Part shown: piece by piece, positions 4,655 through 32,000 of the stretch | How positions within the stretch are numbered: position 1 is the first letter of the stretch | How the letters are laid out: every line of letters starts with the position of its first letter | From: Candidatus Pelagibacter sp. HTCC7211 | Lineage (GTDB): Bacteria; Pseudomonadota; Alphaproteobacteria; Pelagibacterales; Pelagibacteraceae | Length of the DNA stretch: 32,000 nucleotides | Direction of reading: 5' to 3' | NCBI RefSeq assembly: GCF_000155895.1 | Contig: NZ_DS995298.1 | Coordinates: forward strand, 1,410,001-1,442,000 | Program-made: the position numbers and the translations under genes | The notes under the pieces: model-generated | Database searches by the model: none | Told to the model about the DNA's origin: nothing | The model's input: the letters and a program-made list of their open reading frames with translations, nothing else

Positions 4655-4658
4655 TTCA

Positions 4659-5399: not shown

Positions 5400-5434
5400 T
5401 TGTGTTATAAAATTCTTTTGCTATAAGTCTCGGT

Positions 5435-5665: not shown

Positions 5666-6253
5666 ATGTCAAATGCACCTTTGATGCCAATGGCTACAGC
5701 TGTTTGGTTAGTTGAAAATACAACACTTACTTTTAAACAAATTGCAAATTTTTGTAACCTACATGAAGTTGAAGTTCAAGGAATAGCAGACGGTGAAGTT
5801 GCAAAGGGAATTAAAGCTTATAACCCAATAATTTCAGGTCAACTCACTAGAGAAGAAATTGAATTATCATCAAATGATGAAAATAGAGATCTTCAAATCA
5901 AAAGCACAGATATTGAAATATCCAATATTGAGAAAAAAACTAAAAAATATATACCTCTCTCTAAGAGACAAGACAAGCCGGACTCTGCATTATGGTTAAT
6001 CAGACAACATACCAAGCTAAAAGACTCTCAGATTGCAAAACTAATTGGTATAACAAAAAATTCGGTCACCTCTATAAGAAACAAAAGCTATTGGAACTAT
6101 AATAATTTAAATCCAAAAGACCCTGTTGCTTTAAACTTATTTTCGCAGAAAGATCTGATAGAAGCACTAGAAAAAGCTGAGAGAAGAATTAAAAGAGAAA
6201 AAAAAGAAAAAGAAAAAGAAAAACAAGCTAAAGAAATTTCAAACATTGAATAA
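5666..6253 (+). CDS. DUF1013-family conserved alphaproteobacterial protein with two HTH-like segments (putative DNA-binding regulator)
   Basis: 195 aa. The N-terminus MSNAPLMPMATAVWLVENTTLTFKQIANFCNLHEVEVQGIADGE is the signature of the DUF1013 family. A second HTH-like stretch is DSQIAKLIGITKNSVTSIRNKS, and the tail is Lys/Glu-rich. I recall that some databases label members as a cell-cycle regulator, but this cannot be verified here. Confidence 0.75.
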   Translation: MSNAPLMPMATAVWLVENTTLTFKQIANFCNLHEVEVQGIADGEVAKGIKAYNPIISGQLTREEIELSSNDENRDLQIKSTDIEISNIEKKTKKYIPLSKRQDKPDSALWLIRQHTKLKDSQIAKLIGITKNSVTSIRNKSYWNYNNLNPKDPVALNLFSQKDLIEALEKAERRIKREKKEKEKEKQAKEISNIE

Positions 6254-6306
6254 ATTTAATAGACATCAAAATTTTATAGTGATAATTACTCACTTTAAAA
6301 AAATAT

Positions 6307-6501
6307 ATGAAAATAGAAGTTAAAGATAATAACATTGAACAAGCGCTTAGGGTTCTTAAAAGAAAGCTACAACGCGACGGTTTTTTTAAAGTAATAAAAT
6401 TAAAAAATACTTATGAGAAACCATCTGAGAAGAAAAAAAGAATTCTTCAAGAAAATATAAAAAGAGTTAAGAAGTTAAATAAACTTAAAAATAGAATTTA
6501 A
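6307..6501 (+). CDS. rpsU: 30S ribosomal protein S21
   Basis: 64 aa and very basic. Motifs ALRVLKRKLQRDG and YEKPSEKKKR are typical of S21. Confidence 0.92.
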   Translation: MKIEVKDNNIEQALRVLKRKLQRDGFFKVIKLKNTYEKPSEKKKRILQENIKRVKKLNKLKNRI

Positions 6502-8697: not shown

Positions 8698-9005
8698 TAT
8701 TTATCCTTTTTCTTTTTTTTATACATTGCAAGCATTCTCTGCGTTACTAAAAAACCGCCAAATATATTAATAGCTGCTAGTGATATTGCTAAAAACCCAA
8801 AGATACTTGAAGTGTTAAATATAGTATCAGAGTCCCCTGCTAATCCTGCAATGATCGCGCCTACAATTATGACAGATGAAATAGCATTGGTAACTGACAT
8901 TAAAGGTGTGTGAAGTGATGGCGTAACACTCCAAACCACATAATATCCTATAAAAATTGAAAGGATAAAAATACTTAATCTAAATATAAAAGGATCTATT
9001 TCCAT
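8697..9005 (-). CDS. pntAB: NAD(P) transhydrogenase subunit alpha, membrane part 2
   Basis: 102 aa with three predicted TM helices. Motifs HTPLMSVTNAISS and GGFLVTQRML. It sits between pntAA and pntB, as in split alphaproteobacterial transhydrogenases such as Rhodospirillum. Confidence 0.9.
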   Translation of the reverse strand: MEIDPFIFRLSIFILSIFIGYYVVWSVTPSLHTPLMSVTNAISSVIIVGAIIAGLAGDSDTIFNTSSIFGFLAISLAAINIFGGFLVTQRMLAMYKKKKKDK

Positions 9006-9009
9006 AATT

Positions 9010-10098
9010 TCATTTTATTAACGTTTTTTCAACTATCTCGTCTTCTAAATTAATATTAATTCTATTATTTTCTTTATCATATAAATTCGAAACAAAATTA
9101 AATACATTTTTAGCATATAAATTGGATGCTGAAGTTGGAAGCTTGTTTAAAATATTACTTTCCCCCATTATTTTAACACCATTGCTATCAACAATTTCAT
9201 TAACTTTAGTGTGTGCTGTATTTCCACCTTGAATGGCTGCTAAATCATAAATTATCGAACCAGAATTCATATTATTAATCATGGCTTCTTTAATTATCAC
9301 TGGTGCTTTTTTCCCAGGAATTAAAGCTGTGCAAATTACAATGTCAATTTTCTTTAATGTTTCTGACAATAATTCTTCTTGCTTCTTTTTAAAATCATCT
9401 GATGCTTCTTTAGCATAACCTCCTTCTGTCTCTAAATTTTCAGCTCCTTCAACTGTTAAAAATTTTCCCCCTAAACTTTCAACCTGTTCTTTAGAAGCCA
9501 TTCTAACATCTGTCGCAAATACAATTGCACCCATTCGTTTTGCAGTTGCAATTGCTTGCAATCCTGCCACCCCTGCTCCAACAACTAATACTTTTGCAGC
9601 GGGTATTGTTCCTGCTGCAGTCATCATCATTGGAATTGCTTTTTCAAAATGAGCGAACGACTCTACTACCGCTTTATAACCTGCAAGGTTTGCTTGTGAA
9701 GATAGTATATCCATTGATTGAGCTCTTGTTATTCTTGGAAGTAATTCAAGTGAAAAAATATTAATTTTTTTTTTAACTAAATCATTTATCTTCTCTTTAT
9801 TATCATATGGGTTTAACACTCCAATAAATGTTTGATTTTCTTTTAATGAAGAACTTTTGTCATCATCGAATAAGCCTAATTGGACAATAATATCTGCACT
9901 AGATATGATTTCTTTTTCATCTTGTGAAATTGATACGCCTAATTCTTTATACTCTTCATCTTTAATTCCAAGATGGCTTCCATAATTTTCAGCTAATGAA
10001 ACTCCAAGACCAAGAGATATATATTTTTTTGCAATCTCAGGGGTAATTGCAATTCTTTTTTCAATTTTTTGATTTTCTAAAATAGAAGCAATTTTCAT
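9010..10098 (-). CDS. pntAA: NAD(P) transhydrogenase subunit alpha, soluble part 1 (dI)
   Basis: 362 aa with alanine-dehydrogenase/PNT fold. Motifs RIAITPE, the Rossmann motif VLVVGAGVAGLQAIATAKRMGA, and ALIPGKKAP. Confidence 0.93.
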   Translation of the reverse strand: MKIASILENQKIEKRIAITPEIAKKYISLGLGVSLAENYGSHLGIKDEEYKELGVSISQDEKEIISSADIIVQLGLFDDDKSSSLKENQTFIGVLNPYDNKEKINDLVKKKINIFSLELLPRITRAQSMDILSSQANLAGYKAVVESFAHFEKAIPMMMTAAGTIPAAKVLVVGAGVAGLQAIATAKRMGAIVFATDVRMASKEQVESLGGKFLTVEGAENLETEGGYAKEASDDFKKKQEELLSETLKKIDIVICTALIPGKKAPVIIKEAMINNMNSGSIIYDLAAIQGGNTAHTKVNEIVDSNGVKIMGESNILNKLPTSASNLYAKNVFNFVSNLYDKENNRININLEDEIVEKTLIK

Positions 10099-12637: not shown

Positions 12638-13906
12638 TTAATTAACACTTTTTTTTTTAAAAATATTTTTTTTTGAATAAATAGATTGAAGATAAAAACC
12701 TACAGGTAGACTGTAAACTATTATTAGCCAATTATTGAAAAAATTGCCATTTGGAGAAAATGGCCATGTAGTTATTAATAATCCAGCTAACAAACATACT
12801 TGATAATCTGTAAAATATCTTTTTTGTTTAAATAAAATAGTCTTAATCTGTCTTAAAGCAGAATATAGAACATAACATATTGCGCTTAACAAAAAAATAA
12901 ATCCTACAATTCCAGTTTCTGCTAATAATTGTACATAAAAATTATGAGGATGAGTACTACATGGTTGTTGTCCTGTTGAATATTTGGAGTCGGAACATTT
13001 TATTCTAAACATTTTGGGGCCATGACCAAAAATAGGTTTGTCTTGAAACATTTTATATGCTGTTTTTAAATGACTATCATGAACAGGAGTAAAAATTGTT
13101 TTTTGGTTTGAGCTTTTGATTAAACCCATGTTTTTAGCAGGCGACAAAAACATCCTATCAGTTAAATTAGATGAATTTAGACTTAAAATAACGACAAAAA
13201 ACATTGCCACAATAAATGTGACTAATCTAAATTTTTGATATTTTTTGATCAAAAGAATTATAAATACAGTTGATAAATTTAAAAAAAAGAATGCAGTCCT
13301 TTCGCCAGACATAAATATTAAAACATCAACTAAAATAAATAAAATTCCTATAAAATAAATTTCAAATTTTTGTTTTGGTTTGATTAAAAATAAAGCAAAT
13401 AATAAAGGAAACAATCTTGATAAATAAGAGCCCATGACAAGTTCATCACCAAATAAGGATGAAATCCTATTTCCTATTGTTTCCAATCCTAATAAATTTT
13501 TTCCCGTTAAATATTGAAAATAACCATCAATTACCAAAACTGAAAAACATAAAATTAAAGCATAATAAAAATAAATTAAAATACTTTTATCTTTATCTAT
13601 CAAATACCAAATCAAACAGCTGAATATTCCTATTCTAAAATAAAATAAAGAACTTTTTACACTTAAAGATATATCTTCAGCCTCTAAGCTTAATAAAGTA
13701 GATATAATACAAAATGATAAAAATATAATAAATGGTATGTTATTAAAATAATAAAAATTATTATTTTGCAATACAAAATATAAAAAAAATAAAGATGAAA
13801 CACTTACTATTAAATCTGGAAAAAAAGGCCCCGAAATTAAAAAGGGAATTACAGACACAACTATTAAATTAATTAAAATTTTATTCGAGTATTTAAATTT
13901 ATTCAT
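12638..13906 (-). CDS. Wzy_C-domain membrane protein (O-antigen ligase WaaL family; an O-oligosaccharyltransferase or polymerase role is also possible)
   Basis: 422 aa with about 10-12 predicted TM segments. The periplasmic loop carries SGERTAFFF, FGHGPKMF and the Wzy_C hallmark HPHNFYVQLLAETGIVGF. Confidence 0.75.
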   Translation of the reverse strand: MNKFKYSNKILINLIVVSVIPFLISGPFFPDLIVSVSSLFFLYFVLQNNNFYYFNNIPFIIFLSFCIISTLLSLEAEDISLSVKSSLFYFRIGIFSCLIWYLIDKDKSILIYFYYALILCFSVLVIDGYFQYLTGKNLLGLETIGNRISSLFGDELVMGSYLSRLFPLLFALFLIKPKQKFEIYFIGILFILVDVLIFMSGERTAFFFLNLSTVFIILLIKKYQKFRLVTFIVAMFFVVILSLNSSNLTDRMFLSPAKNMGLIKSSNQKTIFTPVHDSHLKTAYKMFQDKPIFGHGPKMFRIKCSDSKYSTGQQPCSTHPHNFYVQLLAETGIVGFIFLLSAICYVLYSALRQIKTILFKQKRYFTDYQVCLLAGLLITTWPFSPNGNFFNNWLIIVYSLPVGFYLQSIYSKKNIFKKKSVN

Positions 13907-19643: not shown

Positions 19644-20795
19644 TTATTCTATAATTTTTAGAATCTCGACATATAAAGCTTCAGCTAACAAACTATGTCC
19701 TTCACCTTTAAAGTGCATAAAATCTAATTCTTGTTTTTTTTTTAAATTAGTTGAACCTTTAAATCCCCATAGTTTACTTGGGATAATCTTTTCTAAAGAA
19801 ACAAAATTAACATAATATTTATCAGCGATATTTTTAGTTTCTATTTTAAAATTAGAATACTCATTAATATTATAAGGGATCTTCACATCATTTCTTAATG
19901 GTGGAATATAAACTAATACTTTTATTTTATTTTTGATGGCTAAATTTAGAATATCTTCATACGCTTTTTGATTTTTTATATAAGGTCCTTTAATCATTCT
20001 ACGAGTCGAGGTTGCATTAATACCAAATATTGAATTTCTAAGTTGATATAATAATCCAAAAAATTTTCCTCTTAAAACCTCTCTATCTTTCCATAACGAC
20101 CAAATTTCACCAAGTTCTTTATTTAAGAAATTTTCCCAATTATTTTGTTTAGTGTTTTTTTCAATTTTTGACTCATTTCCAACTATATCTTTTGCATCAT
20201 TGAGAAAAATTAGATTTTTGCCTGTAAACGTTTTTTTAATACTTTCTAAAGTTTGTTGATCTTCTAAGGCGCTTATAATGTTTGATCTTAATACATCTTC
20301 GCGCATATCATCAAAAACTAAAGGTAATATCAAAGTTTCGATTGGAAATTTTTTTATTAAATGTGCAAAAAGCAAAAAATGCTCTTGTAAATTTGCATTT
20401 GGTTGAGAAAAAGTCAAAGTATATATTCCAAATTTTTTCAGTTTTTTATGTAATTTTAATGGTGAAACTTCATCATCAGGTTGAGGTTGATTTATTGCGT
20501 GCAGTTGAGAATTGCCTAGCCATAAAATTACTGGCATTTTATCATTAGTGTTTTTATAACTATCAATACAACTATCTAAATCGCTTAAGTCACCACAATG
20601 AACTCTTTCACCATCTTCTATCCCCATTGATTTTTTATTATCATCACCTAGAGCTAATTCCTCAAATTTAATATCTTTTTTGCTATTATGTGTAACAAAA
20701 GTAAGGAAAAAAAAACCAAAAATTAATCCTATTAAAATTGATATTTTACTTTGATATAAATTGTCTTTTTTAATTAATAAAAAAAATTTATTCAT
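19644..20795 (-). CDS. Signal-anchored periplasmic protein with degenerate SGNH-like blocks; putative partner of the MBOAT enzyme
   Basis: 383 aa with one N-terminal TM, ISILIGLIFGFFFLTFV. Candidate SGNH blocks are VILWLGNSQLH (block I-like, GNSQ in place of GDSx) and ELDFMHFKGEGH (DxxH block V-like). Its stop is 4 nt upstream of the MBOAT gene's start codon. Function is inferred from motifs and position only. Confidence 0.45.
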   Translation of the reverse strand: MNKFFLLIKKDNLYQSKISILIGLIFGFFFLTFVTHNSKKDIKFEELALGDDNKKSMGIEDGERVHCGDLSDLDSCIDSYKNTNDKMPVILWLGNSQLHAINQPQPDDEVSPLKLHKKLKKFGIYTLTFSQPNANLQEHFLLFAHLIKKFPIETLILPLVFDDMREDVLRSNIISALEDQQTLESIKKTFTGKNLIFLNDAKDIVGNESKIEKNTKQNNWENFLNKELGEIWSLWKDREVLRGKFFGLLYQLRNSIFGINATSTRRMIKGPYIKNQKAYEDILNLAIKNKIKVLVYIPPLRNDVKIPYNINEYSNFKIETKNIADKYYVNFVSLEKIIPSKLWGFKGSTNLKKKQELDFMHFKGEGHSLLAEALYVEILKIIE

Positions 20796-20809: not shown

Positions 20810-22567
20810 TTAATTATTTCTTTTTATTATCCAGTCTCCTATCACCAAGATATCCATTTTAGTGCGTAAAAAAGTTTCGAGTGCTTCTTCAGGTTTACAA
20901 ACAACTGGCTCATTTTCATTAAACGAAGTATTTAAAACCATTGGAACTCCTGTTAGATTTTTAAATTCATTTATTAATGAATAATATCTTGGGTTATTTT
21001 TTTTATCTACAGTTTGTAATCGCCCAGACCCATCTACATGTGTAACTGCAGGAATTATTGATCTTTTATTTTTTTTAATTTGATAAACCTGCATCATAAA
21101 TGGCACATCATCGTTTTGCTCAAACCATTCAGATACTTCTTTACTAAGAATTGAGGGTGCAAAAGGTCTGAAAGACTCTCTTCTTTTTATCTTAAGATTT
21201 AATATATCTTTCATATCAGATCTGCGAGGGTCGCAGACAATGCTGCGATTTCCTAAAGCTCTTGGTCCCCATTCCATTTTTCCCTGAAACCATCCAATTA
21301 CTTTTCCTTCTGCAATCTCTGAAGCTATATGTTTTGTCAGTTGTGTGATCTCAGAAAAATTTTCTATAAGACAATTTTCTTTTTTTATTTTATTTTTTTG
21401 TAATTTTAATAAATCGCTAATATAATCGTCTGTAAAAGAGGGTCCCCAGTAAGCATGATCATGTGGTAAAACTCTTTCTTTTGATTTTTTACCGCCAATT
21501 TTATGCCATGTCATCAATGCTGCTCCAATTGCACCACCCGCATCACCTGCTGCAGCTTGAATATAAATTTTCTTAAACGGAGTTTTTAAAGATACTTTTC
21601 CATTTGCAACTGAATTCATTCCACAGCCACCAGAAATCGAGAGATTATCTATTTTATATCTTTTATATAATTTGTTTAATAAATGAAAGAATGCTTCTTC
21701 GTACATTAACTGCACAGAGTGTGCTATATCTTTATGTTTTTGAGTTAATTCTTGATTATTACCTCGAGCTGAACCTAAAAGTTTTTCAAGATCAGGCGAG
21801 AATAAAGTTCCAATATGAGGTGATCCTTTTTCCCATTCATAATCAATTTTTTCACGATGATGTCTAAAATATTTAAGATTTAATTCAAATGTGCCATCTG
21901 ATTTTAATTTTACTATATCTCTTAATTGTTTGATATAAACTGGTTTACCATATGGGGCTAAACCCATGACCTTATATTCATCTCCATAATTATGAAATCC
22001 AATATACTGCGTTAATGCTTGATAAAAAATACCCAACGAATGAGGAAAATAAACACGATCTGCTAAGTTAATTTTTGTACCCTTTCCAATACCAAAAGCA
22101 GTACTTGCAAAGTCTCCGAAACCATCTACTGAAACTACTACTGCCTCATTAAAATTAGATGTATGAAAGGCAGACGATAAGTGTGCAGCATGGTGTTCGA
22201 CTGCATGAATAGAGCCATTAAATTTTGAATTTGAAAATACTTTTAAAATTTGGTCATTAATATTAAGACGCTTCCGCTTATTTTTAAGACGGTCTAAAAG
22301 CATTTTCAAATTTGGGCGATTTTTAAATGTAAATATAATTTTTCTTAGAAGGTTAGCTTTTACATCTTGATTTAATGCAATGTGTTCCACATTTTCTAAA
22401 CCAATCCCTGCTTCAGATAAGCACCATTTAATCGCCTCTGATGGAAATCCAGCCCAATGCTTAATTCGTCTAAAACGTTCCTCCTCCGCTGCTGCAATTA
22501 AACGACCATCCTTTAAAATGCAAGCTGAGGAATCTCCATGAAATGCATTGATGCCAATTATGTACAT
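20810..22567 (-). CDS. Carbamoyltransferase (NodU/CmcH/TobZ family)
   Basis: 585 aa. The N-terminus is IIGINAFHGDSSACILKDGRLIAAAEEERFRRIKHWAGFP. Further motifs are SGGCGMNSVANG and the C-terminal LNTSFNENEPVV. Confidence 0.9.
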   Translation of the reverse strand: MYIIGINAFHGDSSACILKDGRLIAAAEEERFRRIKHWAGFPSEAIKWCLSEAGIGLENVEHIALNQDVKANLLRKIIFTFKNRPNLKMLLDRLKNKRKRLNINDQILKVFSNSKFNGSIHAVEHHAAHLSSAFHTSNFNEAVVVSVDGFGDFASTAFGIGKGTKINLADRVYFPHSLGIFYQALTQYIGFHNYGDEYKVMGLAPYGKPVYIKQLRDIVKLKSDGTFELNLKYFRHHREKIDYEWEKGSPHIGTLFSPDLEKLLGSARGNNQELTQKHKDIAHSVQLMYEEAFFHLLNKLYKRYKIDNLSISGGCGMNSVANGKVSLKTPFKKIYIQAAAGDAGGAIGAALMTWHKIGGKKSKERVLPHDHAYWGPSFTDDYISDLLKLQKNKIKKENCLIENFSEITQLTKHIASEIAEGKVIGWFQGKMEWGPRALGNRSIVCDPRRSDMKDILNLKIKRRESFRPFAPSILSKEVSEWFEQNDDVPFMMQVYQIKKNKRSIIPAVTHVDGSGRLQTVDKKNNPRYYSLINEFKNLTGVPMVLNTSFNENEPVVCKPEEALETFLRTKMDILVIGDWIIKRNN

Positions 22568-22589
22568 AAGTTTTCTACCCTCTTAATTT

Positions 22590-23735
22590 TTATTTATAAT
22601 TAGATATGTATTTATAAGCTAGTGAATGAAGTTCCCCACATCTCTTTAAATTAAGTTTATTTTCAGCTATTTGTCTTGATTTTTTACCAAATCTTTGTCT
22701 TAGTTTAGATCTATCAATAAGCTTTTTTATACCTTTTGCCAAATTTTTATCATTTCCTACTCTAACAACCAAACCATTATTGCCATTATTAATAAATTTT
22801 TTAATGTCACCAACATCAGTGGAAACTATTGCCTTCTCCATTGACATAGCTTCCCATACAGATAAGGGTGAAGATTCATTTCTAGAAGTACAAACATATA
22901 TATTAATTAGCTTAAGCAAAGGCCTAACATCTTCTCTATAATTCAGAAAAAAAAAATTTTTTATTGACAGTTCTTTTATTAAACTATTTAATTTCTTAAA
23001 ATATTCATTTTGACTAGCGTAAATATTACCTATTACAATAAAAACTATTTTATCTGAGTAAAAAGATAGTTTTTTTGCAGCCTTTATAAACATTTCAAGG
23101 TTTTTAACTGGATTTATATTTGAAACTGTACCAATAATAATTTTTTTTTTTTCAATTTTTTTATTTATAAATTTCTCTTTTGGATATTTCAAATAAGGAT
23201 TAAAAAAATTTGTATCAACAGGTGACTGAATTATAAAACTTTTACGATTAGGTATTAATTTCTTATAATAATCTTTTGTCTTCTCCGAAGCAAAAATAAA
23301 CCCATTTGCTAAATGACTTAAAAAAAAAAATATATTTCTAATTAAAGTAGGAGAATATGTATCATTTAATTCCCAAATAACCTTGATAGAAGCTAATTTT
23401 GCAGCAAAAATTCCTTTACTTTGCCAACAGCCACCACTTACGTGTACAAGGTCAAAGTTATATTTTTTCAATATTTTAGCTAGCATAATAACCTCAAATG
23501 GAAAAAAAATTATATAAAGTAAAATATCAATCAAATTACGTTTTATTGTAGTTAAAGATAACGATAAATAATTAACACCAAGTAATTTACATTGTTTTTT
23601 TATAGCTCTTGAATTTTGATTTGGGAAAATTAATGTTACATCAACCTGTCCTCTTAAAACTTTTGCAACTTTTAAATTTCGAATCTGTGGACCACCTATT
23701 CTTGCTTCTTCTATAATGTTAGCAACACGTATCAA
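22590..23735 (-). CDS. Glycosyltransferase family 4 (GT-B fold)
   Basis: 381 aa with a TTG start overlapping the upstream stop (TTGA). EX7E-type motif ESSPLSVWEAMSMEKAIVSTDVGD. Confidence 0.82.
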   Translation of the reverse strand: MIRVANIIEEARIGGPQIRNLKVAKVLRGQVDVTLIFPNQNSRAIKKQCKLLGVNYLSLSLTTIKRNLIDILLYIIFFPFEVIMLAKILKKYNFDLVHVSGGCWQSKGIFAAKLASIKVIWELNDTYSPTLIRNIFFFLSHLANGFIFASEKTKDYYKKLIPNRKSFIIQSPVDTNFFNPYLKYPKEKFINKKIEKKKIIIGTVSNINPVKNLEMFIKAAKKLSFYSDKIVFIVIGNIYASQNEYFKKLNSLIKELSIKNFFFLNYREDVRPLLKLINIYVCTSRNESSPLSVWEAMSMEKAIVSTDVGDIKKFINNGNNGLVVRVGNDKNLAKGIKKLIDRSKLRQRFGKKSRQIAENKLNLKRCGELHSLAYKYISNYK

Positions 23736-24955
23736 CTGATAAGATCCTTAATTGTGTTTTTGTTTTTTAAATTACTTACGTTAACAGGTCTTTTGTAATT
23801 ATAATGATTTAAACCACACAAGATAATTGCATACCAACAAAAATAATATCTATACCAAGGGATAGCCAGAAGATAAATCATACTTATTAATAAGAGAGTA
23901 CGATTTGTATTTGAAAAAGATATGGACATAAATAGCACTAAGCAAGAAATTAAAATTCCAAATTCAAAGAAAAGATATAAAAAACCTGAAGATAATCCTC
24001 TACCTAGTTCATCATCAGAATATTTGATAAAATTATTTATTCCATGACCAAATAAAAGTTTGGAAATAGAGGCATCCTTTAAAACTTCAATAGCAAAGAA
24101 ATTTCGTTCCATTCGATCTAGAAATGAGGTTTCAGAAAAATGTAAATTGAATGACTCAAAATTTACATTAAACAAATAAGAAACAATTAAAATTAATAAT
24201 GATGACATTAATACAGTAAGTACAACATTAATTTGTTTAAATTTTAAATCTAGAATAAGAATAATTATTAAAACCAAATAAAATGTAAGTGAAAAAGTCA
24301 ACAAACCAGCTAACAAACTTGTAAGATAATATTTTATTGGAAATAAATTTCTATTCTTTGAGATAATCAATAAATTAAATGCAAAAAACATACCTGCATA
24401 TTGTGGTTCAGTAAAAAAACTACTAACTCTCTCTAATCCAATAAAAGCAAATTGTTTAAAGACTGTAAAACCAAAAATACTAATTTTATAATCGTAAGCT
24501 GGGTTAAATAAAGACTCAGATGAATTGAAACTTACTAAAGAAGTATTAAAATTTGTGAACTGATTAACAAAAAAAGAAATAATTGCTAAAATTGAAATTA
24601 TGAATGAAAAACGTATCCATAATCGAAGAAAAGTTTCATTACTAAAATTATTTGTTCTTAAAACTCTAAATATTGAATAAGCAACAAAAATTACCGCATA
24701 TGCAGATAGAACATTATTTAAGCTACTCCTCTGAGAGAAAATCTCCAGAATTAAAATAATCATCAAAAGAATAAAAAAATTAATTTCTAAAAATTTAAAT
24801 TTTGTATTCTCAAGATAAAGTAATAATATAATTACTACACCAATCAACCCTCTTATTTCTTTTCCAAAAAATGGAAGTTGAGAGAATACAAATGGTGGGC
24901 TAATTAATGCTAAAGCAATTAGTAAAATAGAAATAATTTTTATTCGAGTATGCAT
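23732..24955 (-). CDS. Polytopic membrane protein, O-antigen polymerase-like (Wzy-type)
   Basis: 407 aa with about 10-11 TM segments. Has a loop with FGHGINNF followed by GFLYLFFEFGILIS, a degenerate version of the Wzy_C motif. It is embedded between glycosyltransferase genes. Confidence 0.6.
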   Translation of the reverse strand: MHTRIKIISILLIALALISPPFVFSQLPFFGKEIRGLIGVVIILLLYLENTKFKFLEINFFILLMIILILEIFSQRSSLNNVLSAYAVIFVAYSIFRVLRTNNFSNETFLRLWIRFSFIISILAIISFFVNQFTNFNTSLVSFNSSESLFNPAYDYKISIFGFTVFKQFAFIGLERVSSFFTEPQYAGMFFAFNLLIISKNRNLFPIKYYLTSLLAGLLTFSLTFYLVLIIILILDLKFKQINVVLTVLMSSLLILIVSYLFNVNFESFNLHFSETSFLDRMERNFFAIEVLKDASISKLLFGHGINNFIKYSDDELGRGLSSGFLYLFFEFGILISCLVLFMSISFSNTNRTLLLISMIYLLAIPWYRYYFCWYAIILCGLNHYNYKRPVNVSNLKNKNTIKDLIS

Positions 24956-24997: not shown

Positions 24998-25888
24998 TCA
25001 TCTATTGGAACTAATCATTATATGAGTAATCATAATTAATGATTTCAATCTCAATTTAAAAGAACTATATCTTAATACAAATACTAAATCTTTTTTTGCT
25101 TGTTTATAGTTAAAATTTAAATAATTAAATCGACCTGATATATACTTAATATTTGCTTCTAATTTTTTTTTTTGCTTATTATTTAAAATACACAAAAAGT
25201 CTTGTGTTGCTTTTTGAGTTGGCATAGACATATTTCTTCGAGATACTCCTTCGTGATGTATATAATAATATCCAAGTTTTTTGGGAATGTATAAAAATTG
25301 GTCGGTAAATTTTGAAATTTTTAACCAAGTGTTATAATCCTCAGCTGCAATTAAATCTTTATTTTCCTCAATTAAACCAATTTTTGTAAGTACTTTTTTT
25401 CTAACAATCACAGAGGAATTACTGATCACATTACCATTTACTAATAAATCTATTAATATTGGTTTTTTTAATTGACGAGATTTATTTATTTTGCCTTTAA
25501 AAAATATTTGTCTATCAGACGTAACTTCCAAATCATGATAAATTAAATCTATTTGATTATTAATATTCTCTATGCAGGTTTTAAGTTTATCACTTGTCCA
25601 AGAATCATCAGAGTCCAAAAAAGCTACCCAATCCCCTTTTGCTGATTTAATACCTATATTCCTAGATTTAGCAATTACTCCATAATTTTGGATTTTTAAG
25701 TACTTGATTCTATGATCATTGAATCTAGCAATTACCTTACCTGTATCATCTGTTGAATGATTATCGATTACGATTGCTTCCCAATTTGTGTATGTTTGAT
25801 GAAGAACTGATTGTAATGCCTTGTTGAGATAATCCGCATGATTAAAAGTTGGAATTATAATGGATACAAGTGGTTTAAATTTATACAT
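24998..25888 (-). CDS. Glycosyltransferase family 2
   Basis: 296 aa. Motifs VSIIIPTFNHADYL, VIDNHSTDDT and the DxD motif LDSDDSW. Confidence 0.85.
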   Translation of the reverse strand: MYKFKPLVSIIIPTFNHADYLNKALQSVLHQTYTNWEAIVIDNHSTDDTGKVIARFNDHRIKYLKIQNYGVIAKSRNIGIKSAKGDWVAFLDSDDSWTSDKLKTCIENINNQIDLIYHDLEVTSDRQIFFKGKINKSRQLKKPILIDLLVNGNVISNSSVIVRKKVLTKIGLIEENKDLIAAEDYNTWLKISKFTDQFLYIPKKLGYYYIHHEGVSRRNMSMPTQKATQDFLCILNNKQKKKLEANIKYISGRFNYLNFNYKQAKKDLVFVLRYSSFKLRLKSLIMITHIMISSNR

Positions 25889-25919: not shown

Positions 25920-26831
25920 TTATTTCATAATAAGTTTATATTTTTTAATTATTTTATTTATATTTTTCAAAATTTGATCAATTTCAAAATAAATTTTTTT
26001 ATTATCTGGAGAAAATTTTAAATTTTGATTGCTATGTATTAAAATTTTCTTTTTTTGTCTAGATTTTTTTATTATTGTGTCAATATTTAAATTAAATATA
26101 AATTTACATCTTTTCTGAATTAATTTTGCTGTATCTCTAAGATTTAAATTTTTATATGAAATATTTATAATTGAATTCTTGAAAAATTTTTTGGTTATTA
26201 TAAAGTTTAGTACTTGCATAAATATTTTTGATGGAACAAATGTCCTCTGTACAGAACCATTATTAATTATAATCTTATTTTTTTTTAAAGCCGAAACACA
26301 TAAACTATGAATTATGTTATTATTAATTTCTCTTAAATTTTCATACTTTTTAAATCCAAAAACATTACCAATCCTTAAAATTGTAAACATATTTTTATGA
26401 TTTAAAAATTTTTTAATAATAATTCTTTCAGATTCATAGTGCGCTTTTGAATAAGAATTTTTAAGATTAATTTTAGAATTTAAAGAAATATTATTTTTTC
26501 CGTAATCTTTATAAACTTGCATAGAAGATATATAAATTAATTTGATATTATTTATTAAACATAGATCACAGATATTTGAAGTGATTTGATTTTTTTTTTT
26601 TATTAAATTGATATTTTTTAATAATTGATTTTGATTAGGCCCTATAAGATGAACAATATATTCAAATTTTTTGAATATTTTTAAATTTTTTTTAGTAAAT
26701 TTATAATTAAAAAAATTTTTAGCATTCTTTTTTCTAGAAAAAAAAAAATATTTATTTTTTTTAAAACTATTTTGATTTTTTATTAACGATGCTAGATAAC
26801 CAGTGCCACCAAAGACAGCTATTTTTGCCAT
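25920..26831 (-). CDS. Extended-SDR family protein, probable NDP-4-ketohexose reductase (RfbJ/RfbS-like size and position)
   Basis: 303 aa. Motifs IAVFGGTGYLAS (Rossmann) and ILRIGNVFG. The catalytic region reads NSYSKAHYESE, so YxxxK is not in the canonical register. The gene is extremely AT-rich (15% GC hand-counted at 26001-26100). The ATG overlaps the rfbF stop (TAATG). Confidence 0.6.
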   Translation of the reverse strand: MAKIAVFGGTGYLASLIKNQNSFKKNKYFFFSRKKNAKNFFNYKFTKKNLKIFKKFEYIVHLIGPNQNQLLKNINLIKKKNQITSNICDLCLINNIKLIYISSMQVYKDYGKNNISLNSKINLKNSYSKAHYESERIIIKKFLNHKNMFTILRIGNVFGFKKYENLREINNNIIHSLCVSALKKNKIIINNGSVQRTFVPSKIFMQVLNFIITKKFFKNSIINISYKNLNLRDTAKLIQKRCKFIFNLNIDTIIKKSRQKKKILIHSNQNLKFSPDNKKIYFEIDQILKNINKIIKKYKLIMK

Positions 26832-27526
26832 TATTTAAGCCATGGAGATTTTTTATTTCTTATCATCTTATCTAATACTTTTTTATCCCTTAAAGTATCC
26901 ATACAAAACCAAAAACCTTTATGTTTATAAGCAGCTAAATTTTTTGAAATTACTGCTTTTGTTAAAGGAGATCTTTCAAGCATTTCATTTTTTTTTCCTA
27001 TAAATTTTAAAAATTCAGGTTCGACCACAAAAAAACCTCCATTAATCCAACCTTTTTGTAATTGAGGTTTTTCCTCAAATTTTGTCACTACTCGACCAGA
27101 TATAGTCAACTCACCAAACCTTGCAGGTGGATGAACAGCGGTTAAAGTAATTTTTTTTTTACTTTTTTTATGAAAATATAATAATTTTTTTAAATTAACA
27201 TTTGATAAACCATCACCATAAGTTAGCATAAATGTTCTTTTTAACTTATCCTCAAGTTTTTTTAGTCTAGTTCCTGTTAAAGTTTCAACGCCTGTGTTTA
27301 TAACTTCTATTTTTGCAGATATTTTTTTGTTTCTAAAATAATTATTTATGATTGAATGTTTATATCCGCTAGCTATTATAAAATCATTAAAACCAAATTT
27401 CATATAATATTTAATTATATGATCTAAAATAGGTTTAGATCCAACTGGCACCATTGGTTTTGGTATTGATCTTGTAAATTCTGCTAATCTTGTTCCTTTT
27501 CCACCAGCTAATATTACAACTTTCAT
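26831..27526 (-). CDS. rfbF: Glucose-1-phosphate cytidylyltransferase
   Basis: 231 aa counted from the ATG at 27526: MKVVILAGGKGTRLAEFTRSIPKPMVPVGSKPILDHII, which parallels Salmonella RfbF MKAVILAGGLGTRL...KPKPMVEIGGKPIL. This ATG forms an ATGA overlap with the upstream stop. The track's longer start at 27544 would add 6 non-conserved residues. Confidence 0.88.
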   Translation of the reverse strand: MKVVILAGGKGTRLAEFTRSIPKPMVPVGSKPILDHIIKYYMKFGFNDFIIASGYKHSIINNYFRNKKISAKIEVINTGVETLTGTRLKKLEDKLKRTFMLTYGDGLSNVNLKKLLYFHKKSKKKITLTAVHPPARFGELTISGRVVTKFEEKPQLQKGWINGGFFVVEPEFLKFIGKKNEMLERSPLTKAVISKNLAAYKHKGFWFCMDTLRDKKVLDKMIRNKKSPWLK

Positions 27527-27972
27527 CCTAGTTTTATATTCCAATTATAATTAAAATATGGATCATCAAAAGGTTTCCTGGACATTTCTTCAGCTTCATG
27601 AGGTATATCTGAGCAATTAGCAATTATTGAAAACTTATTTTCCACTGATTTAAAACCATTCCAAACTCTTGCGGGCACAGTTACTAAACTGTAATTTTCT
27701 GTTGTCAGAAAAATTTCTTGTAATTCACCTTTGGTAGAACTTTCAGGTCTATCATCAAACAATACTAATTTTATTTTACCTATAACGCAGACATAATTAA
27801 CGGTCATTCTTTTATGTAAATGCCAAGCTTTTACTGTATTTGGATGAGAATATGAAAAATATATTTCACCAAACTTAGTAAAATTTGGATCATCATTTCT
27901 CATCATGTGCATGATTTTTCCTCTTTCATCAATAATTTGTTTTTTAGGGATAATTTTGACACCTTCAATCAT
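27523..27972 (-). CDS. Small RmlC-like cupin, probable NDP-4-keto-6-deoxyhexose 3- and/or 5-epimerase
   Basis: 149 aa. The pattern DERGKIMHM...GEIYFSYSHPNTVKAWHLHKRMTVNYVCVIGKIKLVLFDDRPESSTKG follows the RmlC pattern DERG.F.E...RG.H.H......V.G....V..D.R..S.T.G. The gene overlaps rfbG by 8 nt. Confidence 0.7.
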   Translation of the reverse strand: MIEGVKIIPKKQIIDERGKIMHMMRNDDPNFTKFGEIYFSYSHPNTVKAWHLHKRMTVNYVCVIGKIKLVLFDDRPESSTKGELQEIFLTTENYSLVTVPARVWNGFKSVENKFSIIANCSDIPHEAEEMSRKPFDDPYFNYNWNIKLG

Positions 27973-29020
27973 AGAAAAAACTTGTAAATTGTTTTTTGCT
28001 TAACTTATCAATATTCTTTTTATCATATATATAACATTGGTACCAATGCGCTGTCATTTTAAGAGTTTTGATAAAAGAGAGTTTTGGCTTCCACTTGAGA
28101 TATTTTTTTGATTTATTTATTTTTAAACTTAATAATCCAGTTTCTTCTAAATTCATATCTTTTTTTACAAAAATTCTCTTTTTTACTCCCATAATTTCTA
28201 CTAATCTCAAAACTACTTCTTTTACTGTTACGTTGCCTTTGGCTGGCCCAAAATTCCAAGACCCATTGTAATTACTTCTTCCATATATCTTCTTACTTAA
28301 AATCAAATAACCATTTAAGAGATCAAAAATATGTTGCCATGGTCGAGTAGCCTTAGGACTTCTTAAAGTAAATTTTTGATTATGAATAATAGATTTAATG
28401 AAATCAGGAATAATTCTATCTTTTGACCAATCACCGCCCCCTATAACATTCCCAGCTCTCACAGATACAAGACCTAATTTTTTTTTTTTCTGAAAGAAAG
28501 ATTCTTTATATGAGTAAAATATATTTTCAGCAGCAGCTTTTGAAGCACTATAAGGATCTTTGCCTCCCAATTCATCATTTTCTGAATAACCAGATCTTTT
28601 TTCATAATTTTTATAACATTTGTCTGATGTAATTATTACTGCTGATTTTATACTTTTAGTATTTTTTATAGCTTCTAAAATATTTAGAGTTCCAATTATA
28701 TTTGTAGTAAATGTAAATTTTGAATCTAAATAAGAATCTTTTACTAAAGGTTGTGCTGCTAAATGAAAAATAATATCAGGTTTAAATTTTTTAATTTTTT
28801 TAGATAAATTTTTTTCATCTCTAACATCACCAAAAATATTTTCGATTTTATTTTCTAATTTTAACAAATAAAAATTATCAAATTTATATTTTGGTTTTAA
28901 GCTATACCCTGCTATTTTTGCTCCGCTTAAATATAAAATATATGTCAACCATGAACCTTTGAAACCCGTATGACCTGTAATGAAAATTTTTTTTCCTCTA
29001 AAAAATTTTAAATCTAGCAT
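27965..29020 (-). CDS. rfbG: CDP-glucose 4,6-dehydratase
   Basis: 351 aa. FRGKKIFITGHTGFKGSWLTYILYLSGAKIAGYSLKP is the RfbG/DdhB N-terminal signature. Catalytic motif DPYSASKAAAE. Confidence 0.9.
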   Translation of the reverse strand: MLDLKFFRGKKIFITGHTGFKGSWLTYILYLSGAKIAGYSLKPKYKFDNFYLLKLENKIENIFGDVRDEKNLSKKIKKFKPDIIFHLAAQPLVKDSYLDSKFTFTTNIIGTLNILEAIKNTKSIKSAVIITSDKCYKNYEKRSGYSENDELGGKDPYSASKAAAENIFYSYKESFFQKKKKLGLVSVRAGNVIGGGDWSKDRIIPDFIKSIIHNQKFTLRSPKATRPWQHIFDLLNGYLILSKKIYGRSNYNGSWNFGPAKGNVTVKEVVLRLVEIMGVKKRIFVKKDMNLEETGLLSLKINKSKKYLKWKPKLSFIKTLKMTAHWYQCYIYDKKNIDKLSKKQFTSFFYD

Positions 29021-30298
29021 TTAGTTAATAGAATATGACATGCTGTTAAAATTGGATCTTAAATATTTTTTATAATTATTTTTATCAACAACATGAAATA
29101 TAGGTAGATGAAATATCAGTTTACCTCCTTTTTTAATATAGTTCATTTCCTGTTTAATAACTTCTGATCTAAAAGACCAAATCAAAACTAAAAGATATTT
29201 AGGGTTTCGTTTCCTCATTATTTCCTTTGAAACTATTTTAATATTAGTACCTGGAGTATACCTATTATACTTAAATGGATTAGTGTCACATATTAATGGA
29301 ATATCTTTATTTGTAATTCCCAAATGATTTAAGACGATATTTCCTTTAGTTGAAGCGCCATATCCCATTATATCTTTTGCAGAAATGTTTTTTAAAAATT
29401 CTAAAACTGTTTTCTTTACATTATCCACTCTGTCTTGAAAAAGGTTAAAGATGTTTTTTGAAATTTTAGACTCTTCTTCAAAAATTTTTTGCACAATTGG
29501 CTTTGGTTTTATTTTAGAGACTCTTTTTGCGCAAACAACTTCTATACTTCCACCATTAATTTCATTAAAACTTAGGTCAATAACTTTCATTTGATTATTT
29601 TCTAAAATTTTATCAAATGTGGTTAGTGAGTAATAAGTAACATGCTCATGGCATATTTGATCATAAGTTAGATTTTTGAATAAAAGTGGTAAATATGAAA
29701 ACTCAACTATCCAAATACCATCTTTATTTAAAAGTTCACTAATATCTTTACAAAAACTATTGGGATCTTCAATGTCATAAAACATTGCAAATGAGGTGAT
29801 AATATTAAATTTTTTTCTTATTTGATCTTTTGTCATATTTCCTAATAATTTTTTTTTTGAAAAATAATCTGTAATAACTGAGATATTTTTTTTATAATTA
29901 TCTAAAAATTTCTTTGATGATGGGTCCATACCAAAAAGCTCTACCCTTCTCAAACTAGACATAAAATTTAAAAAAGTTCCATCGTTTGACCCTATATCTA
30001 AGATTTGACCTTCAAGTAATTTTTTATAACTTTTTTTTATAGAATAAAATTTTTTTCTCATATGATTTACCATCAAAGGACTCAGAGAAGTATTATAACC
30101 ATAAGTTAATCCATACATATCATCTAAAGGTGGTAATGAACTAAATTGAACCAATCCACACTTGGGGCAAGTATATAAGTCTAAAGAATAATTTTTAAGC
30201 TTGTATTTAGGTTTATCATGAAAAACGCTACTGATTGGTTGTTTGCCAATTTTAAATACTTTTTTTAAATTTGGATTTTTACAATTTTTACACTTCAT
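29021..30298 (-). CDS. NDP-hexose C-methyltransferase (zinc-ribbon + SAM + C-terminal sugar-binding domain; TylCIII/TcaB9-type architecture)
   Basis: 425 aa. The N-terminal C3-x2-C6 ... C44-x2-C47 forms a zinc ribbon (MKCKNCKN...YTCPKCGLVQ). SAM motif ILDIGSNDGTFL. The long C-terminal domain has GYGASTKGN. The gene abuts rfbG with zero spacer. Confidence 0.75.
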   Translation of the reverse strand: MKCKNCKNPNLKKVFKIGKQPISSVFHDKPKYKLKNYSLDLYTCPKCGLVQFSSLPPLDDMYGLTYGYNTSLSPLMVNHMRKKFYSIKKSYKKLLEGQILDIGSNDGTFLNFMSSLRRVELFGMDPSSKKFLDNYKKNISVITDYFSKKKLLGNMTKDQIRKKFNIITSFAMFYDIEDPNSFCKDISELLNKDGIWIVEFSYLPLLFKNLTYDQICHEHVTYYSLTTFDKILENNQMKVIDLSFNEINGGSIEVVCAKRVSKIKPKPIVQKIFEEESKISKNIFNLFQDRVDNVKKTVLEFLKNISAKDIMGYGASTKGNIVLNHLGITNKDIPLICDTNPFKYNRYTPGTNIKIVSKEIMRKRNPKYLLVLIWSFRSEVIKQEMNYIKKGGKLIFHLPIFHVVDKNNYKKYLRSNFNSMSYSIN

Positions 30299-30306
30299 TA
30301 CTGTGC

Positions 30307-31452
30307 TTATAATTTAAATTCTCTTAGTTTGCTATTAATAAAGCTTATCTCTTTATTTTTTAAATGAGGATGCAAAGGCAAAGTAACTAATTCTTTCCAA
30401 ACTTTAAGAGCGATTGGTATTTTAGATTTAAACTTTTTATACAATGGATGCAAAGGTAATGGCATCAAATGAACACTAGTTGAGATATTATGTTTTTTTA
30501 GATAAGAAATTAATTTGTCTCTATTTTTTGATCTTATTGAAAACATCCAGTATGATGATTTATTTAGATCATAGGGAAATGTTGGAATTAAATTTTTACA
30601 TTTTTTTAAATTTTTTAAATATTTTTTTAAAAACTTTATTCTTGAATTATTAAGAAATGATAATTTTTTTAATTGTACTCTACCAATAGAAGCTTCAAGA
30701 TCATTCATATTGTATTTAAAACCAAGTTGATTTATTTCGTAATACCAATGAAGATTTTGTTTGTTTTTTTTTTTATTATTTGAAAATCTTTGCTTATGTC
30801 TTAATAAAGGGTCTTTATCCCATCCATGAAAACTTAATGATTTTAATTTTTTTGCAATATGAGTATTATTTGTAACGATCATTCCACCATCACCCGTTGT
30901 CATCATTTTTTTTTCCTCAAAACTAAAGCAACCAAAGTGACCCCAAGTACCAATTTTTTTTCCTTTATAGTAGCCTCCACAAGTTTCGGCACAATCTTCT
31001 ATTACAATTAATTTTTTTTGATTAGCAAATTTCATAATCCTATCCATTTCACAGGGATGTCCCCCAAAATGAACTGGCATGATAGCTACACAATCTTTAG
31101 TAAATTTTTTTTTCAAATCATCTAGGCTCATATTTAAATCATTTTTGTTTATGTCCACAAAAACTGGGATTAAACCACAATATAAAACTACTGCTGCAGT
31201 TGCGCTAAAAGTTATCGCTGGAACTAAAACTTTTTTTCCTTTTTTAAAATTGTTGCATAAAAGAGCAAGGTGCAAAGCTGCTGTACATGAATTTACTGCT
31301 ATACTGTGTTTAACCCCAAAATGTTTATTCCATTCTGCTTCAAATTTTTGTACTTCGGTTCCATAACCTATCCATGATCTTTTAAAAACTTTTTTTACTG
31401 AATTTAGTTCTTTAGAACCTAACGAAGGTTGAAACAGCCTAATATTATTCAT
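30307..31452 (-). CDS. DegT/DnrJ/EryC1/StrS-family PLP-dependent sugar aminotransferase
   Basis: 381 aa. Motifs VNSCTAALHLAL, VIEDCAE and FSFEEKKMMTTGDGGM, where the Schiff-base Lys is retained. This argues for an aminotransferase rather than a His-containing dehydrase. Confidence 0.85.
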   Translation of the reverse strand: MNNIRLFQPSLGSKELNSVKKVFKRSWIGYGTEVQKFEAEWNKHFGVKHSIAVNSCTAALHLALLCNNFKKGKKVLVPAITFSATAAVVLYCGLIPVFVDINKNDLNMSLDDLKKKFTKDCVAIMPVHFGGHPCEMDRIMKFANQKKLIVIEDCAETCGGYYKGKKIGTWGHFGCFSFEEKKMMTTGDGGMIVTNNTHIAKKLKSLSFHGWDKDPLLRHKQRFSNNKKKNKQNLHWYYEINQLGFKYNMNDLEASIGRVQLKKLSFLNNSRIKFLKKYLKNLKKCKNLIPTFPYDLNKSSYWMFSIRSKNRDKLISYLKKHNISTSVHLMPLPLHPLYKKFKSKIPIALKVWKELVTLPLHPHLKNKEISFINSKLREFKL

Positions 31453-31455
31453 AAC

Positions 31456-32000
31456 TTATTTTTTCTTAAATATATAAGTTTGTATCTGAGAAAAATCTTT
31501 AGTGTGTTGATTTTCTGACATTGAATTTGCAATTTTTTCTAATGGATGATCATAATTTGTTTTTTCTTTCAAAAATTCTTTTGCATATCGCGCGTATACT
31601 AATCTTGTAATATAATAGAAATCGCTTGCAAATGGAGAAATTTCAACAAGTTTTATACTTTTAAATTCATGATTTCTTAATCTTTCATCATCAAAAAAAA
31701 GATTATGAAACGGAGGAATTATTTCATGAAGATCGTATTTTTTTCTTGCTAAATTAAGTCTTTTTTGGGCATCAGCAGAACTTTCAACTAATACCATTAA
31801 TCCGTCATCTTTTAAAAAACTACCTAAATTTTCTATTGTTTGAATTTGTAGATCTTGCTCTAAAACATTTTGTATAGCCCTTTTTGAAATTATGAAATCA
31901 TATTTTTTTTCAAAAGAGGAGCTAGTAATGTCAGTCATATCCTGTTGAATAAAATTATGTTTATCTGAATTAGATTTTTTAGAACAAACATCAATTAAGT
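31456..32000 (-). CDS. Class I SAM-dependent methyltransferase, 5'-truncated by the window edge
   Basis: The track starts this ORF at Met 31938. Reading the same frame by hand, it stays open to the window end (...LIDVCSKKSNSDKHNFIQQD-MTDI...). The downstream segment YDFIISKRAIQNV...LKDDGLMVLVE resembles post-I/II methyltransferase motifs, so the true start is beyond 32000. Confidence 0.6.
   Translation of the reverse strand, partial: LIDVCSKKSNSDKHNFIQQDMTDITSSSFEKKYDFIISKRAIQNVLEQDLQIQTIENLGSFLKDDGLMVLVESSADAQKRLNLARKKYDLHEIIPPFHNLFFDDERLRNHEFKSIKLVEISPFASDFYYITRLVYARYAKEFLKEKTNYDHPLEKIANSMSENQHTKDFSQIQTYIFKKK

Follow-up and report, generated by a model that had tools for sequence, protein, structure and literature searches.

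The closest described route to the sugars considered here is that of Bacillus cereus, in which a four-gene operon for CDP-cereose and CDP-cillose (CDP, cytidine diphosphate) reportedly runs in the order cytidylyltransferase, 4,6-dehydratase, TylCIII-type sugar C-methyltransferase (CMT) and C4 reductase. CDP-vinelose of Azotobacter vinelandii is an older chemical precedent, and sibirosamine and kansosamine are 4-amino-3-C-methyl sugars of the deoxythymidine diphosphate (dTDP) era. PMC7725333 describes the CDP-cereose and CDP-cillose pathways as differing in their last C4 reductase, and the title of Li et al. 2017 (J Biol Chem 292:7636), on CDP-cereose work, stands in the reference lists of PMC7725333 and PMC10050317. 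Here we analyse the window, a 32,000-nucleotide stretch comprising bases 1,410,001-1,442,000 of the single-contig genome of the SAR11 bacterium Candidatus Pelagibacter sp. HTCC7211 (1,456,888 bp, 99.9% complete), in which seven closely packed open reading frames (ORFs) on the minus strand, from 25920 to beyond 32000, form a sugar-nucleotide cassette. We favour, at a probability of about one half, a reading in which two fused modules draw on one pool of CDP-4-keto-6-deoxy-D-glucose and most likely yield two sugars. More tentatively, we propose that the Wzy-type surface polysaccharide of this SAR11 strain bears a CDP-derived 4-amino-4,6-dideoxy-3-C-methylhexose, possibly N-methylated (kansosamine/sibirosamine-like), through a C4 aminotransferase that replaces the cereose reductase, together with a second, cupin-dependent 6-deoxyhexose made by a short-chain dehydrogenase/reductase (SDR) with His in place of Lys.

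The cassette is transcribed in the order MT2-DegT-CMT-RfbG-cupin-RfbF-SDR, where MT2 is a class I S-adenosylmethionine (SAM) methyltransferase and DegT an aminotransferase dependent on pyridoxal phosphate (PLP); GT2dn, a family 2 glycosyltransferase (GT2), lies downstream. All seven genes are contiguous minus-strand ORFs, as an earlier note on this DNA had stated, and profile hidden Markov models assign each to a family with scores far above chance. Their junctions consist of overlaps of 8 nt, 4 nt (ATGA) and 1 nt (TAATG) and gaps of 0, 8 and 3 nt. On the minus strand between 20000 and 32000 we found no terminator-like sites and no excess of promoter-like matches over the shuffled expectation.

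We compared the cassette with about 60 related loci (numbered with the prefix L), comprising 52 that encode CMT relatives and cupin contexts from genomes without a cupin beside the CMT. The CMT-relative loci were fetched with peptide patterns of the window's CMT, one of them YDQICHEH, and are a biased sample of kin loci. Two gene groups stand apart in this set. Module A occurs alone in L007, L008 and L032 as (MT2)-CMT-GT2-DegT-RfbF-RfbG-GT2 followed by pntA, with a DegT 65% identical to that of the window and with neither cupin nor SDR. L096, L100 and L102 carry module B by itself, in the order RfbF-RfbG-cupin-SDR-GT2; an orthologous CMT and a DegT are both absent, and the SDR of these loci has a canonical YxxxK motif and scores 55.7 bits against RmlD_sub_bind. 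The order cupin-(nucleotidyltransferase)-SDR-GT2dn recurs in L005, L006, L016, L031, L096, L100, L102 and L104, and the cupin is found in 27 of 301 Pelagibacteraceae genomes, one of which, 99% complete, holds no CMT match at E <= 1e-40. The window can thus be read as module B (RfbG-cupin-RfbF-SDR-GT2) extended upstream by MT2-DegT-CMT, with a single RfbF and a single RfbG for both. Because the modules occur separately elsewhere, aminotransferase and reductase most likely complete distinct sugars. The modular co-occurrence is a direct observation, as are the gene identities and family memberships on which it is built. The earlier note had predicted a CDP-linked, C-methyl-branched, aminated or reduced hexose from one cassette: CDP activation and C-methylation hold, whereas a single linear seven-gene pathway does not fit modules that can be separated. 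It had also proposed a search for the full gene set in other genomes; L005, L015 and L031 keep that set, but each half also stands by itself. All close relatives of the cassette belong to Pelagibacteraceae.

The enzyme that would finish C4 varies around a conserved CMT. Beside the CMT-GT2 pair, 19 SAR11 loci carry either a DegT orthologue (9 loci) or a 277-aa SDR (10 loci) and never both, which is a pattern rather than a statistical test because the loci are kin and were retrieved with query peptides. The window CMT is 78% identical to the CMT of L005, a DegT-type locus, and 77% identical to that of L006, a reductase-type locus, the outcome expected if the C4-finishing enzyme is swapped. L006 carries both the 277-aa SDR and a module-B SDR.

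In the scheme we propose, the short RfbF-like enzyme would convert CTP and glucose-1-phosphate to CDP-glucose, which RfbG would dehydrate to the CDP-4-keto-6-deoxy intermediate. In branch A, the CMT would methylate, with SAM as donor, the carbon adjacent to the keto group, most likely C3, and DegT would turn the C4 keto group into an amine to give CDP-4-amino-4,6-dideoxy-3-C-methylhexose; MT2 would then probably methylate the amino sugar at N or O, and a GT2 encoded just beyond the window would probably transfer the product. In branch B, the cupin would epimerise the common CDP-4-keto-6-deoxy-D-glucose, the divergent SDR would reduce the epimerised intermediate to a CDP-6-deoxyhexose and GT2dn would transfer it. 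Both sugars would enter the Wzy-type polysaccharide encoded by the rest of the window. We infer the substrates, regiochemistry and stereochemistry of these steps, as well as the activity of an SDR that reads YxxxH.

The glucose-1-phosphate cytidylyltransferase gene lies at 26831..27544 on the minus strand. Translation probably begins at the ATG at 27526, for a protein of 231 aa, since orthologues begin MKVVILAGG; this ATG overlaps the cupin stop as ATGA, and the SDR start overlaps the RfbF stop as TAATG. The protein scores 256.3 bits against TIGR02623, under the curated equivalog cut-off of 300.25, because about 20 residues are deleted and the match is split in two. Its alignment with Salmonella RfbF (1TZF; E = 1.5e-54) breaks into two blocks on either side of residues 70-95; the E value for RmlA is about 1e-11. 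The motifs GTRL, PKPM, TGTRL, YGDG and MDTLRD all align between the two proteins, as do Thr14, Arg15, Lys25, Arg111, Asp131 and Asp236, which we take to be the active-site residues of S. typhi RfbF. In a maximum-likelihood tree, it groups with canonical RfbF (support 84/92; a verrucomicrobium protein scoring 454 bits to TIGR02623, a cyanobacterium protein and 1TZF), apart from the RmlA and GalU-like proteins of the same genome (98/93). The nucleotidyltransferase is therefore of RfbF type and not RmlA type, as the earlier note had it. There is no second RfbF-like gene in the whole genome. A second nucleotidyltransferase, NT-long, which scores 84 bits to TIGR02623 and is present in many SAR11 loci, was considered as the true CDP-glucose synthase and rejected; it is absent from this genome, and the short RfbF must therefore serve as CDP-glucose synthase here. 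SAR11 RfbF-like proteins measure 225-245 aa and lack the roughly 20 residues that match Salmonella RfbF 70-95. In many SAR11 loci, the short form is the sole nucleotidyltransferase beside RfbG, and a 255-aa form that retains the 70-95 segment is present in L095.

The second shared enzyme, the 351-aa RfbG/DdhB protein (27965..29020, minus strand), scores 433.7 bits against TIGR02622 (cut-off 278.45), compared with 116 bits against the dTDP-glucose dehydratase model (cut-off 365), and its assignment as a CDP-glucose 4,6-dehydratase stands. Its translation holds the NAD-binding TGHTGFKGSW and the YxxxK motif YSASK. RfbG is predicted to make the CDP-4-keto-6-deoxy-D-glucose on which both modules would draw.

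The 425-aa CMT (29021..30298, minus strand) has the complete three-domain architecture of TylCIII/TcaB9-type enzymes, including the C-terminal domain on which the prediction of a sugar C-methyltransferase had depended: a PF08421 zinc ribbon (Methyltransf_13, 46 bits), a PF13489 SAM domain (55 bits) and PF08484 (Methyltransf_14, 138 bits). It aligns end to end with MtmC (3e-37), TcaB9 (8e-37) and KijD1, over an E range of 1e-32 to 1e-37, and keeps both CxxC pairs, with Cys 3, 6, 44 and 47 aligning with those of MtmC. The motif YHEH of MtmC reads CHEH here, with HEH kept and Tyr changed to Cys; in TcaB9 the motif residues with catalytic roles are presumably Tyr222, Glu224 and His225. CHEH also occurs in L034 and L048, which were both retrieved through that peptide and hence are not independent. 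The CHEH/YHEH difference was considered as a marker of CDP use and rejected, both because a YHEH paralogue adjoins RfbF-RfbG in L100 and because the search for the CHEH loci had used that peptide. CMT relatives with 40-78% identity adjoin RfbF/RfbG in several phyla. A plasmid search returned distant relatives only (25-35% identity), in both CDP contexts (S. meliloti pSymB, Bacillus) and a GDP context (Phyllobacterium), so that belonging to this family does not by itself determine which nucleotide is used. To judge from its analogues TylC3, TcaB9 and the cereose enzyme of B. cereus, the CMT most likely methylates C3 of the 4-keto sugar. CMT-family matches at E <= 1e-40 are present in 124 of the 301 Pelagibacteraceae genomes, often in two or three copies.

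DegT (30307..31452, minus strand, 381 aa) belongs to the DegT/DnrJ/EryC1 family (PF01041, 337 bits) and retains its PLP lysine in SFEEKK, in agreement with the earlier note; against the RfbH/E1 model it scores 160 bits, far under the cut-off of 423. Orthologues with 59-86% identity occur in nine SAR11 loci, three of which have no cupin or isomerase. In those three (L007, L008 and L032), C4 is the only keto group after the 4,6-dehydratase and the CMT, and the lineage is for that reason most simply a C4 aminotransferase. A 95-aa ORF at 31079-31366 on the plus strand, antisense to DegT, is most likely a chance frame in AT-rich DNA. MT2 (31456..32000, minus strand) is cut by the window edge; the full gene encodes 268 aa and ends at window coordinate 32262. 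It matches Pfam Methyltransf_31/23/12/25 and, weakly, NodS (26.6 bits), and its orthologues adjoin DegT or CMT in L005 (69% identity) and L008 only. MT2 would probably N- or O-methylate the module-A sugar. In L005 (9179-9952), L015 and L017, the DegT orthologue is accompanied by a formyltransferase (PF00551, NLHPSYLP motif), where the window has MT2. This arrangement suggests N-formylation of the amino sugar in those three loci, and a formyltransferase beside DegT is the expected outcome if DegT yields a free amine.

The 149-aa cupin (27523..27972, minus strand) scores 53 bits against PF00908 and, against PF05523, 30.8 bits, above the cut-off of 23; against the RmlC equivalog TIGR01221 it reaches 27 bits, under the cut-off of 155.75. 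Its closest structure is 3EJK, an uncharacterised structural-genomics entry, and it matches 5BUV weakly (E = 0.0013). The cupin segment W-H50-L-H52-K aligns without gaps to F-H49-A-H51-K of FdtA, whose sequence we verified against 2PA7. In an alignment with RmlC (catalytic His63/Lys73/Tyr133), the His at the RmlC His63 place is kept and the equivalents of K73, H120 and Y133 are N, N and A. An isomerase of the FdtA/QdtA type would be expected beside a C3 aminotransferase; in L096, L100 and L102 the cupin is followed by SDR and GT2, and there is no aminotransferase. In cyanobacterial cassettes, canonical RmlC-type proteins of 184 aa take the place of this cupin, and a canonical rmlC is present elsewhere in the window's genome. 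We favour a keto-sugar epimerase, with a 3,4-ketoisomerase as the rival, because of the higher RmlC-family score, the RmlC-type proteins in the cyanobacterial slot and the pairing with a reductase in module B.

The SDR (25920..26831, minus strand, 303 aa) is a divergent extended type, with 56 bits to PF01370, 24.9 bits to RmlD_sub_bind and one PDB match, at E = 0.004. Window G+C ranges from about 19 to 32%, with the minimum (19%) over this gene. Ser and Tyr of the Ser-Tyr-Lys triad are present, but the YxxxK position reads Y-S-K-A-H, and in the alignment this His falls on the Lys in the YNKSK motif of the canonical SDR encoded at the corresponding place in L102. At the place of the catalytic Lys, homologues carry Arg in L104 and Lys in L096, L100 and L102. 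YxxxH, a Ser-Ser motif and a Gly-rich N-terminus are kept in seven SDR orthologues (33-66% identity), all intact and all followed by GT2dn. The SDR is predicted to be the ketoreductase acting on the cupin product, and GT2dn (24998..25888, minus strand, 296 aa; PF00535, 107 bits), whose gene comes after that of the SDR in all module-B loci, is the predicted transferase for the module-B sugar.

Four other explanations were weighed against the two-sugar reading. A single linear pathway, in which the cupin epimerises, the CMT branches, DegT aminates and MT2 N-methylates while the SDR serves a side product or another pathway, would account for seven co-directional, overlapping genes without terminator-like sites and for the recurrence of the same set in L005, L015 and L031. 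It is unlikely nonetheless, given that each half stands alone in other genomes with its own GT2, that one keto group cannot be both aminated and reduced, and that the two reductases of L006 fit two products. A second explanation turns on the cupin: were it an FdtA/QdtA-type 3,4-ketoisomerase, DegT would aminate C3, or the SDR would reduce a 3-keto group, and the products would be CDP-linked 3-amino-3,6-dideoxy sugars or 6-deoxy sugars inverted at C3/C4. The HxHK segment spaced as FdtA His49/His51, the missing equivalents of RmlC Tyr133 and Lys73, the 149-aa size, the PF05523 score above its cut-off and the position of DegT directly before the cupin in L017 and L031 all speak for it. We nevertheless consider it rather unlikely: the RmlC family outscores PF05523 (53 versus 31 bits), where module B stands alone, the cupin is accompanied by an RmlD-like reductase but by no aminotransferase, DegT orthologues in L007, L008 and L032 have no cupin at all, and canonical RmlC-type proteins occupy the same slot in cyanobacterial cassettes.

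Decay of branch B, with an inactive SDR, a cupin serving branch A only and one epimerised C-methyl amino sugar as the product, is improbable in our judgement. The missing YxxxK lysine, the sole PDB match at E = 0.004 and the lowest G+C lying over the SDR gene would fit it, but YxxxH, Ser-Ser and the Gly-rich N-terminus are conserved in seven intact orthologues with GT2dn after each, and Arg occupies the same place in the L104 homologue; together, YxxxH conservation and this Arg suggest that a basic residue is tolerated at the Lys position. The slimmest chance goes to methylation at C5 (noviose-type gem-dimethyl) or another carbon instead of C3. The CMT family does include C5-methylating enzymes such as NovU, and the equivalent of TcaB9 Tyr222 is Cys in this CMT; against this, the solved relatives MtmC, TcaB9 and KijD1 and the B. 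cereus CDP enzyme are C3-methyltransferases. Several points count against the two-sugar reading itself. The roles of these SAR11 enzymes are read from sequence, not biochemistry; the RfbF-like score lies below the curated cut-off, with some 20 residues missing; and the loci behind the DegT/reductase exclusivity are related. With FdtA-like HxHK and without the RmlC Tyr and Lys, the cupin may be a ketoisomerase, which would alter branch B and possibly shift DegT regiochemistry in loci that have both; it could, in this genome, also take part in branch A. The SDR, whose catalytic Lys is replaced by His, may be weak or inactive, and the CMT sequence may also be compatible with NovU-type C5 methylation.

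Classical CDP-3,6-dideoxyhexose synthesis depends on the enzymes E1 and E3. The earlier note had found neither in the window and had left the region just beyond position 32000 to be checked; no E1/E3-like ORFs occur there within 15 kb, where the first three ORFs were run against Pfam. These ORFs encode a methyltransferase, a GT2, a TylF-type methyltransferase, a 598-aa protein, a nucleotidyltransferase and further products, one of which reads as NeuB-type synthase-like. In the whole genome, no protein passes the RfbH/E1 cut-off, the best match reaching 303 bits against 423. The best match is encoded at 122.9 kb on the contig, about 137 kb from the cassette, among rmlB, rmlA and the canonical rmlC; in it, His replaces the PLP lysine (SFYASH) and there is no CxC cluster. 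No other His-type DegT relative is encoded in the genome. With no E1/E3 near the cassette, a classical 3,6-dideoxy route from it is therefore not supported. The dTDP locus at 120100-124700 (L064, L065) itself comprises rmlB, rmlA, a 284-aa ORF without a family, a 400-aa His-type DegT relative (ColD/E1-like) and rmlC, a gene content that predicts a 3-deoxygenated sugar made without E3. Two SAR11 CDP cassettes without a CMT also contain His-type, ColD/E1-like DegT relatives (L095:6462-7649 and L099:7757-8926; His read by eye), and some lineages may accordingly make CDP-3,6-dideoxy sugars without E3.

Other genes recur around these cassettes. In L017, L019, L022 and L031 (for example L031:11303-13348), a pair of genes sits between the CMT-GT2 pair and DegT or the cupin: one encodes a Gfo/Idh/MocA-type oxidoreductase of about 301 aa, the other a radical SAM protein of about 377 aa without an NCBIfam match. 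Downstream of the cassette, the window encodes a 407-aa ORF, a GT4, a carbamoyltransferase, an MBOAT protein, a GT2 and an SDR, and further downstream a Bac_transf initiating transferase, a PglF-like dehydratase, an O-antigen ligase-family protein, a Wzz protein and an epimerase. The ORFs at 19644-20795 (383 aa) and 23732-24955 (407 aa) have no Pfam match; the latter is very hydrophobic and by its position is taken for a putative Wzy-type polymerase. A separate Wzy_C/ligase-family gene lies at 12638-13906. Three ORFs at 7300-10098 (362, 102 and 465 aa) match in size the genes that flank the island in relatives (364, 103 and 467-468 aa). From their sequences we read the flanking genes as pntA, pntA2 and pntB, and their counterparts by size in the window would be a candidate island boundary. 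In the upstream direction, the island continues across the end of the contig and reaches at least 44 kb into its beginning, a stretch with a second CMT paralogue, an FdtA-like cupin and a further DegT. This second zinc-ribbon CMT paralogue (33% identical; contig 21527-22771, L105) is separated from the first by about 38 kb, counted over the contig ends. At contig 3306-6328 (L004) are a 150-aa cupin (RAWHGHKK, FdtA/WxcM-like by eye), a 460-aa ORF and a 395-aa DegT-family protein (156 bits to RfbH), and this cupin and DegT could be a ketoisomerase/aminotransferase pair in the same island.

SAR11 are among the most abundant marine bacteria, and their hypervariable glycan islands are believed to influence how they interact with phages and grazers. 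We know of no chemical description of SAR11 surface glycans. The modular reading predicts that one cultured strain makes a pair of rare CDP-derived sugars, including a C-methyl amino sugar, and it suggests that SAR11 lineages diversify such a sugar by exchanging the enzyme that completes C4 (reductase or aminotransferase, in some loci joined by a formyl- or methyltransferase) while the CMT is conserved. For enzymology, it draws attention to a predicted CDP-specific CMT/aminotransferase pair, to a shortened RfbF and to a lineage of SDRs in which His or Arg takes the place of a Lys regarded as essential. If true, the CDP-4-amino-3-C-methyl product would be the first CDP-linked branched amino sugar. 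It opens no new pathway class: Bacillus cereus has already furnished proof of the CDP C-methyl route, which is common in genomes.

The statement in the earlier note that the cassette matches no characterised pathway was too strong, since its first three steps match those of the B. cereus CDP-cereose operon; within the literature searched, it is apt for the 4-amino variant. RfbF, RfbG and CMT are contiguous in that operon, and the window holds them at 26831-30298 with the cupin gene between RfbG and RfbF; the same set is found in L110. The B. cereus-group plasmid CP126591.1, with the same layout of four genes, encodes an RfbF 42% identical to that of the window, an RfbG (43%), a CMT (28%) and an NAD(P) oxidoreductase with homology to the 277-aa SDR of SAR11, as well as a GT2. 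Whereas the Bacillus operon ends in a C4 reductase, the window has no 277-aa orthologue beside its CMT and carries DegT there instead, unlike sister SAR11 loci such as L006, which retain the Bacillus-type reductase; the window also adds the cupin/SDR/GT2 module. Canonical RfbF-RfbG-CMT-SDR cassettes occur in Verrucomicrobiota, with related ones in cyanobacteria and Kuenenia, and S. meliloti pSymB holds a ddhA-ddhB-methyltransferase trio. With the B. cereus pathway, these wide occurrences mean that a CDP-dependent C-methyl route is established and widespread. In S. meliloti ABS7 pSymB (L107, 6114-6867), the ddhA homologue matches in two pieces in different frames with no gene-table entry and is possibly a pseudogene. 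Our literature search found no characterised CDP pathway ending in C4 amination, and searches on CDP-linked C-methyl pathways, vinelose, SMb21418 and CDP-4-keto-6-deoxyglucose aminotransferases returned annotation-level mentions only.

The actinomycete pathways to dTDP-linked branched amino sugars (TylC3/EryBIII for mycarose, TcaB9 for tetronitrose, KijD1 and MtmC) share the three-domain CMT fold and the logic of a 4-keto-6-deoxy intermediate that is C-methylated and then aminated or reduced. They differ from the window in their carrier, which is CDP here, in the 2,3-dehydratase, which the window lacks, and in their motif, YHEH rather than CHEH; their CMTs also belong to antibiotic clusters, whereas that of the window belongs to a Wzy-type surface glycan of a marine oligotroph. 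For module B, the nearest counterpart is the CDP-6-deoxyhexose route of Yersinia enterocolitica O:8, with DdhA, DdhB, the epimerase WbcA and the reductase WbcB, of which the Rml pathway is the dTDP analogue. Module B has the same four activities by family (cytidylyltransferase, 4,6-dehydratase, cupin and SDR reductase), but its 149-aa cupin is of the 3EJK type and lacks the Tyr and Lys of RmlC, and its SDR reads YxxxH. The classical CDP-3,6-dideoxyhexose pathway (DdhA-D, or RfbF, RfbG, RfbH and RfbI) is alike in its first two enzymes and differs in its E1/E3 pair, which has no counterpart within 15 kb of the window. Set against these systems, the core C-methylation route is already known, and what is new here is the aminotransferase variant, the short RfbF, the HxHK cupin and the YxxxH SDR.

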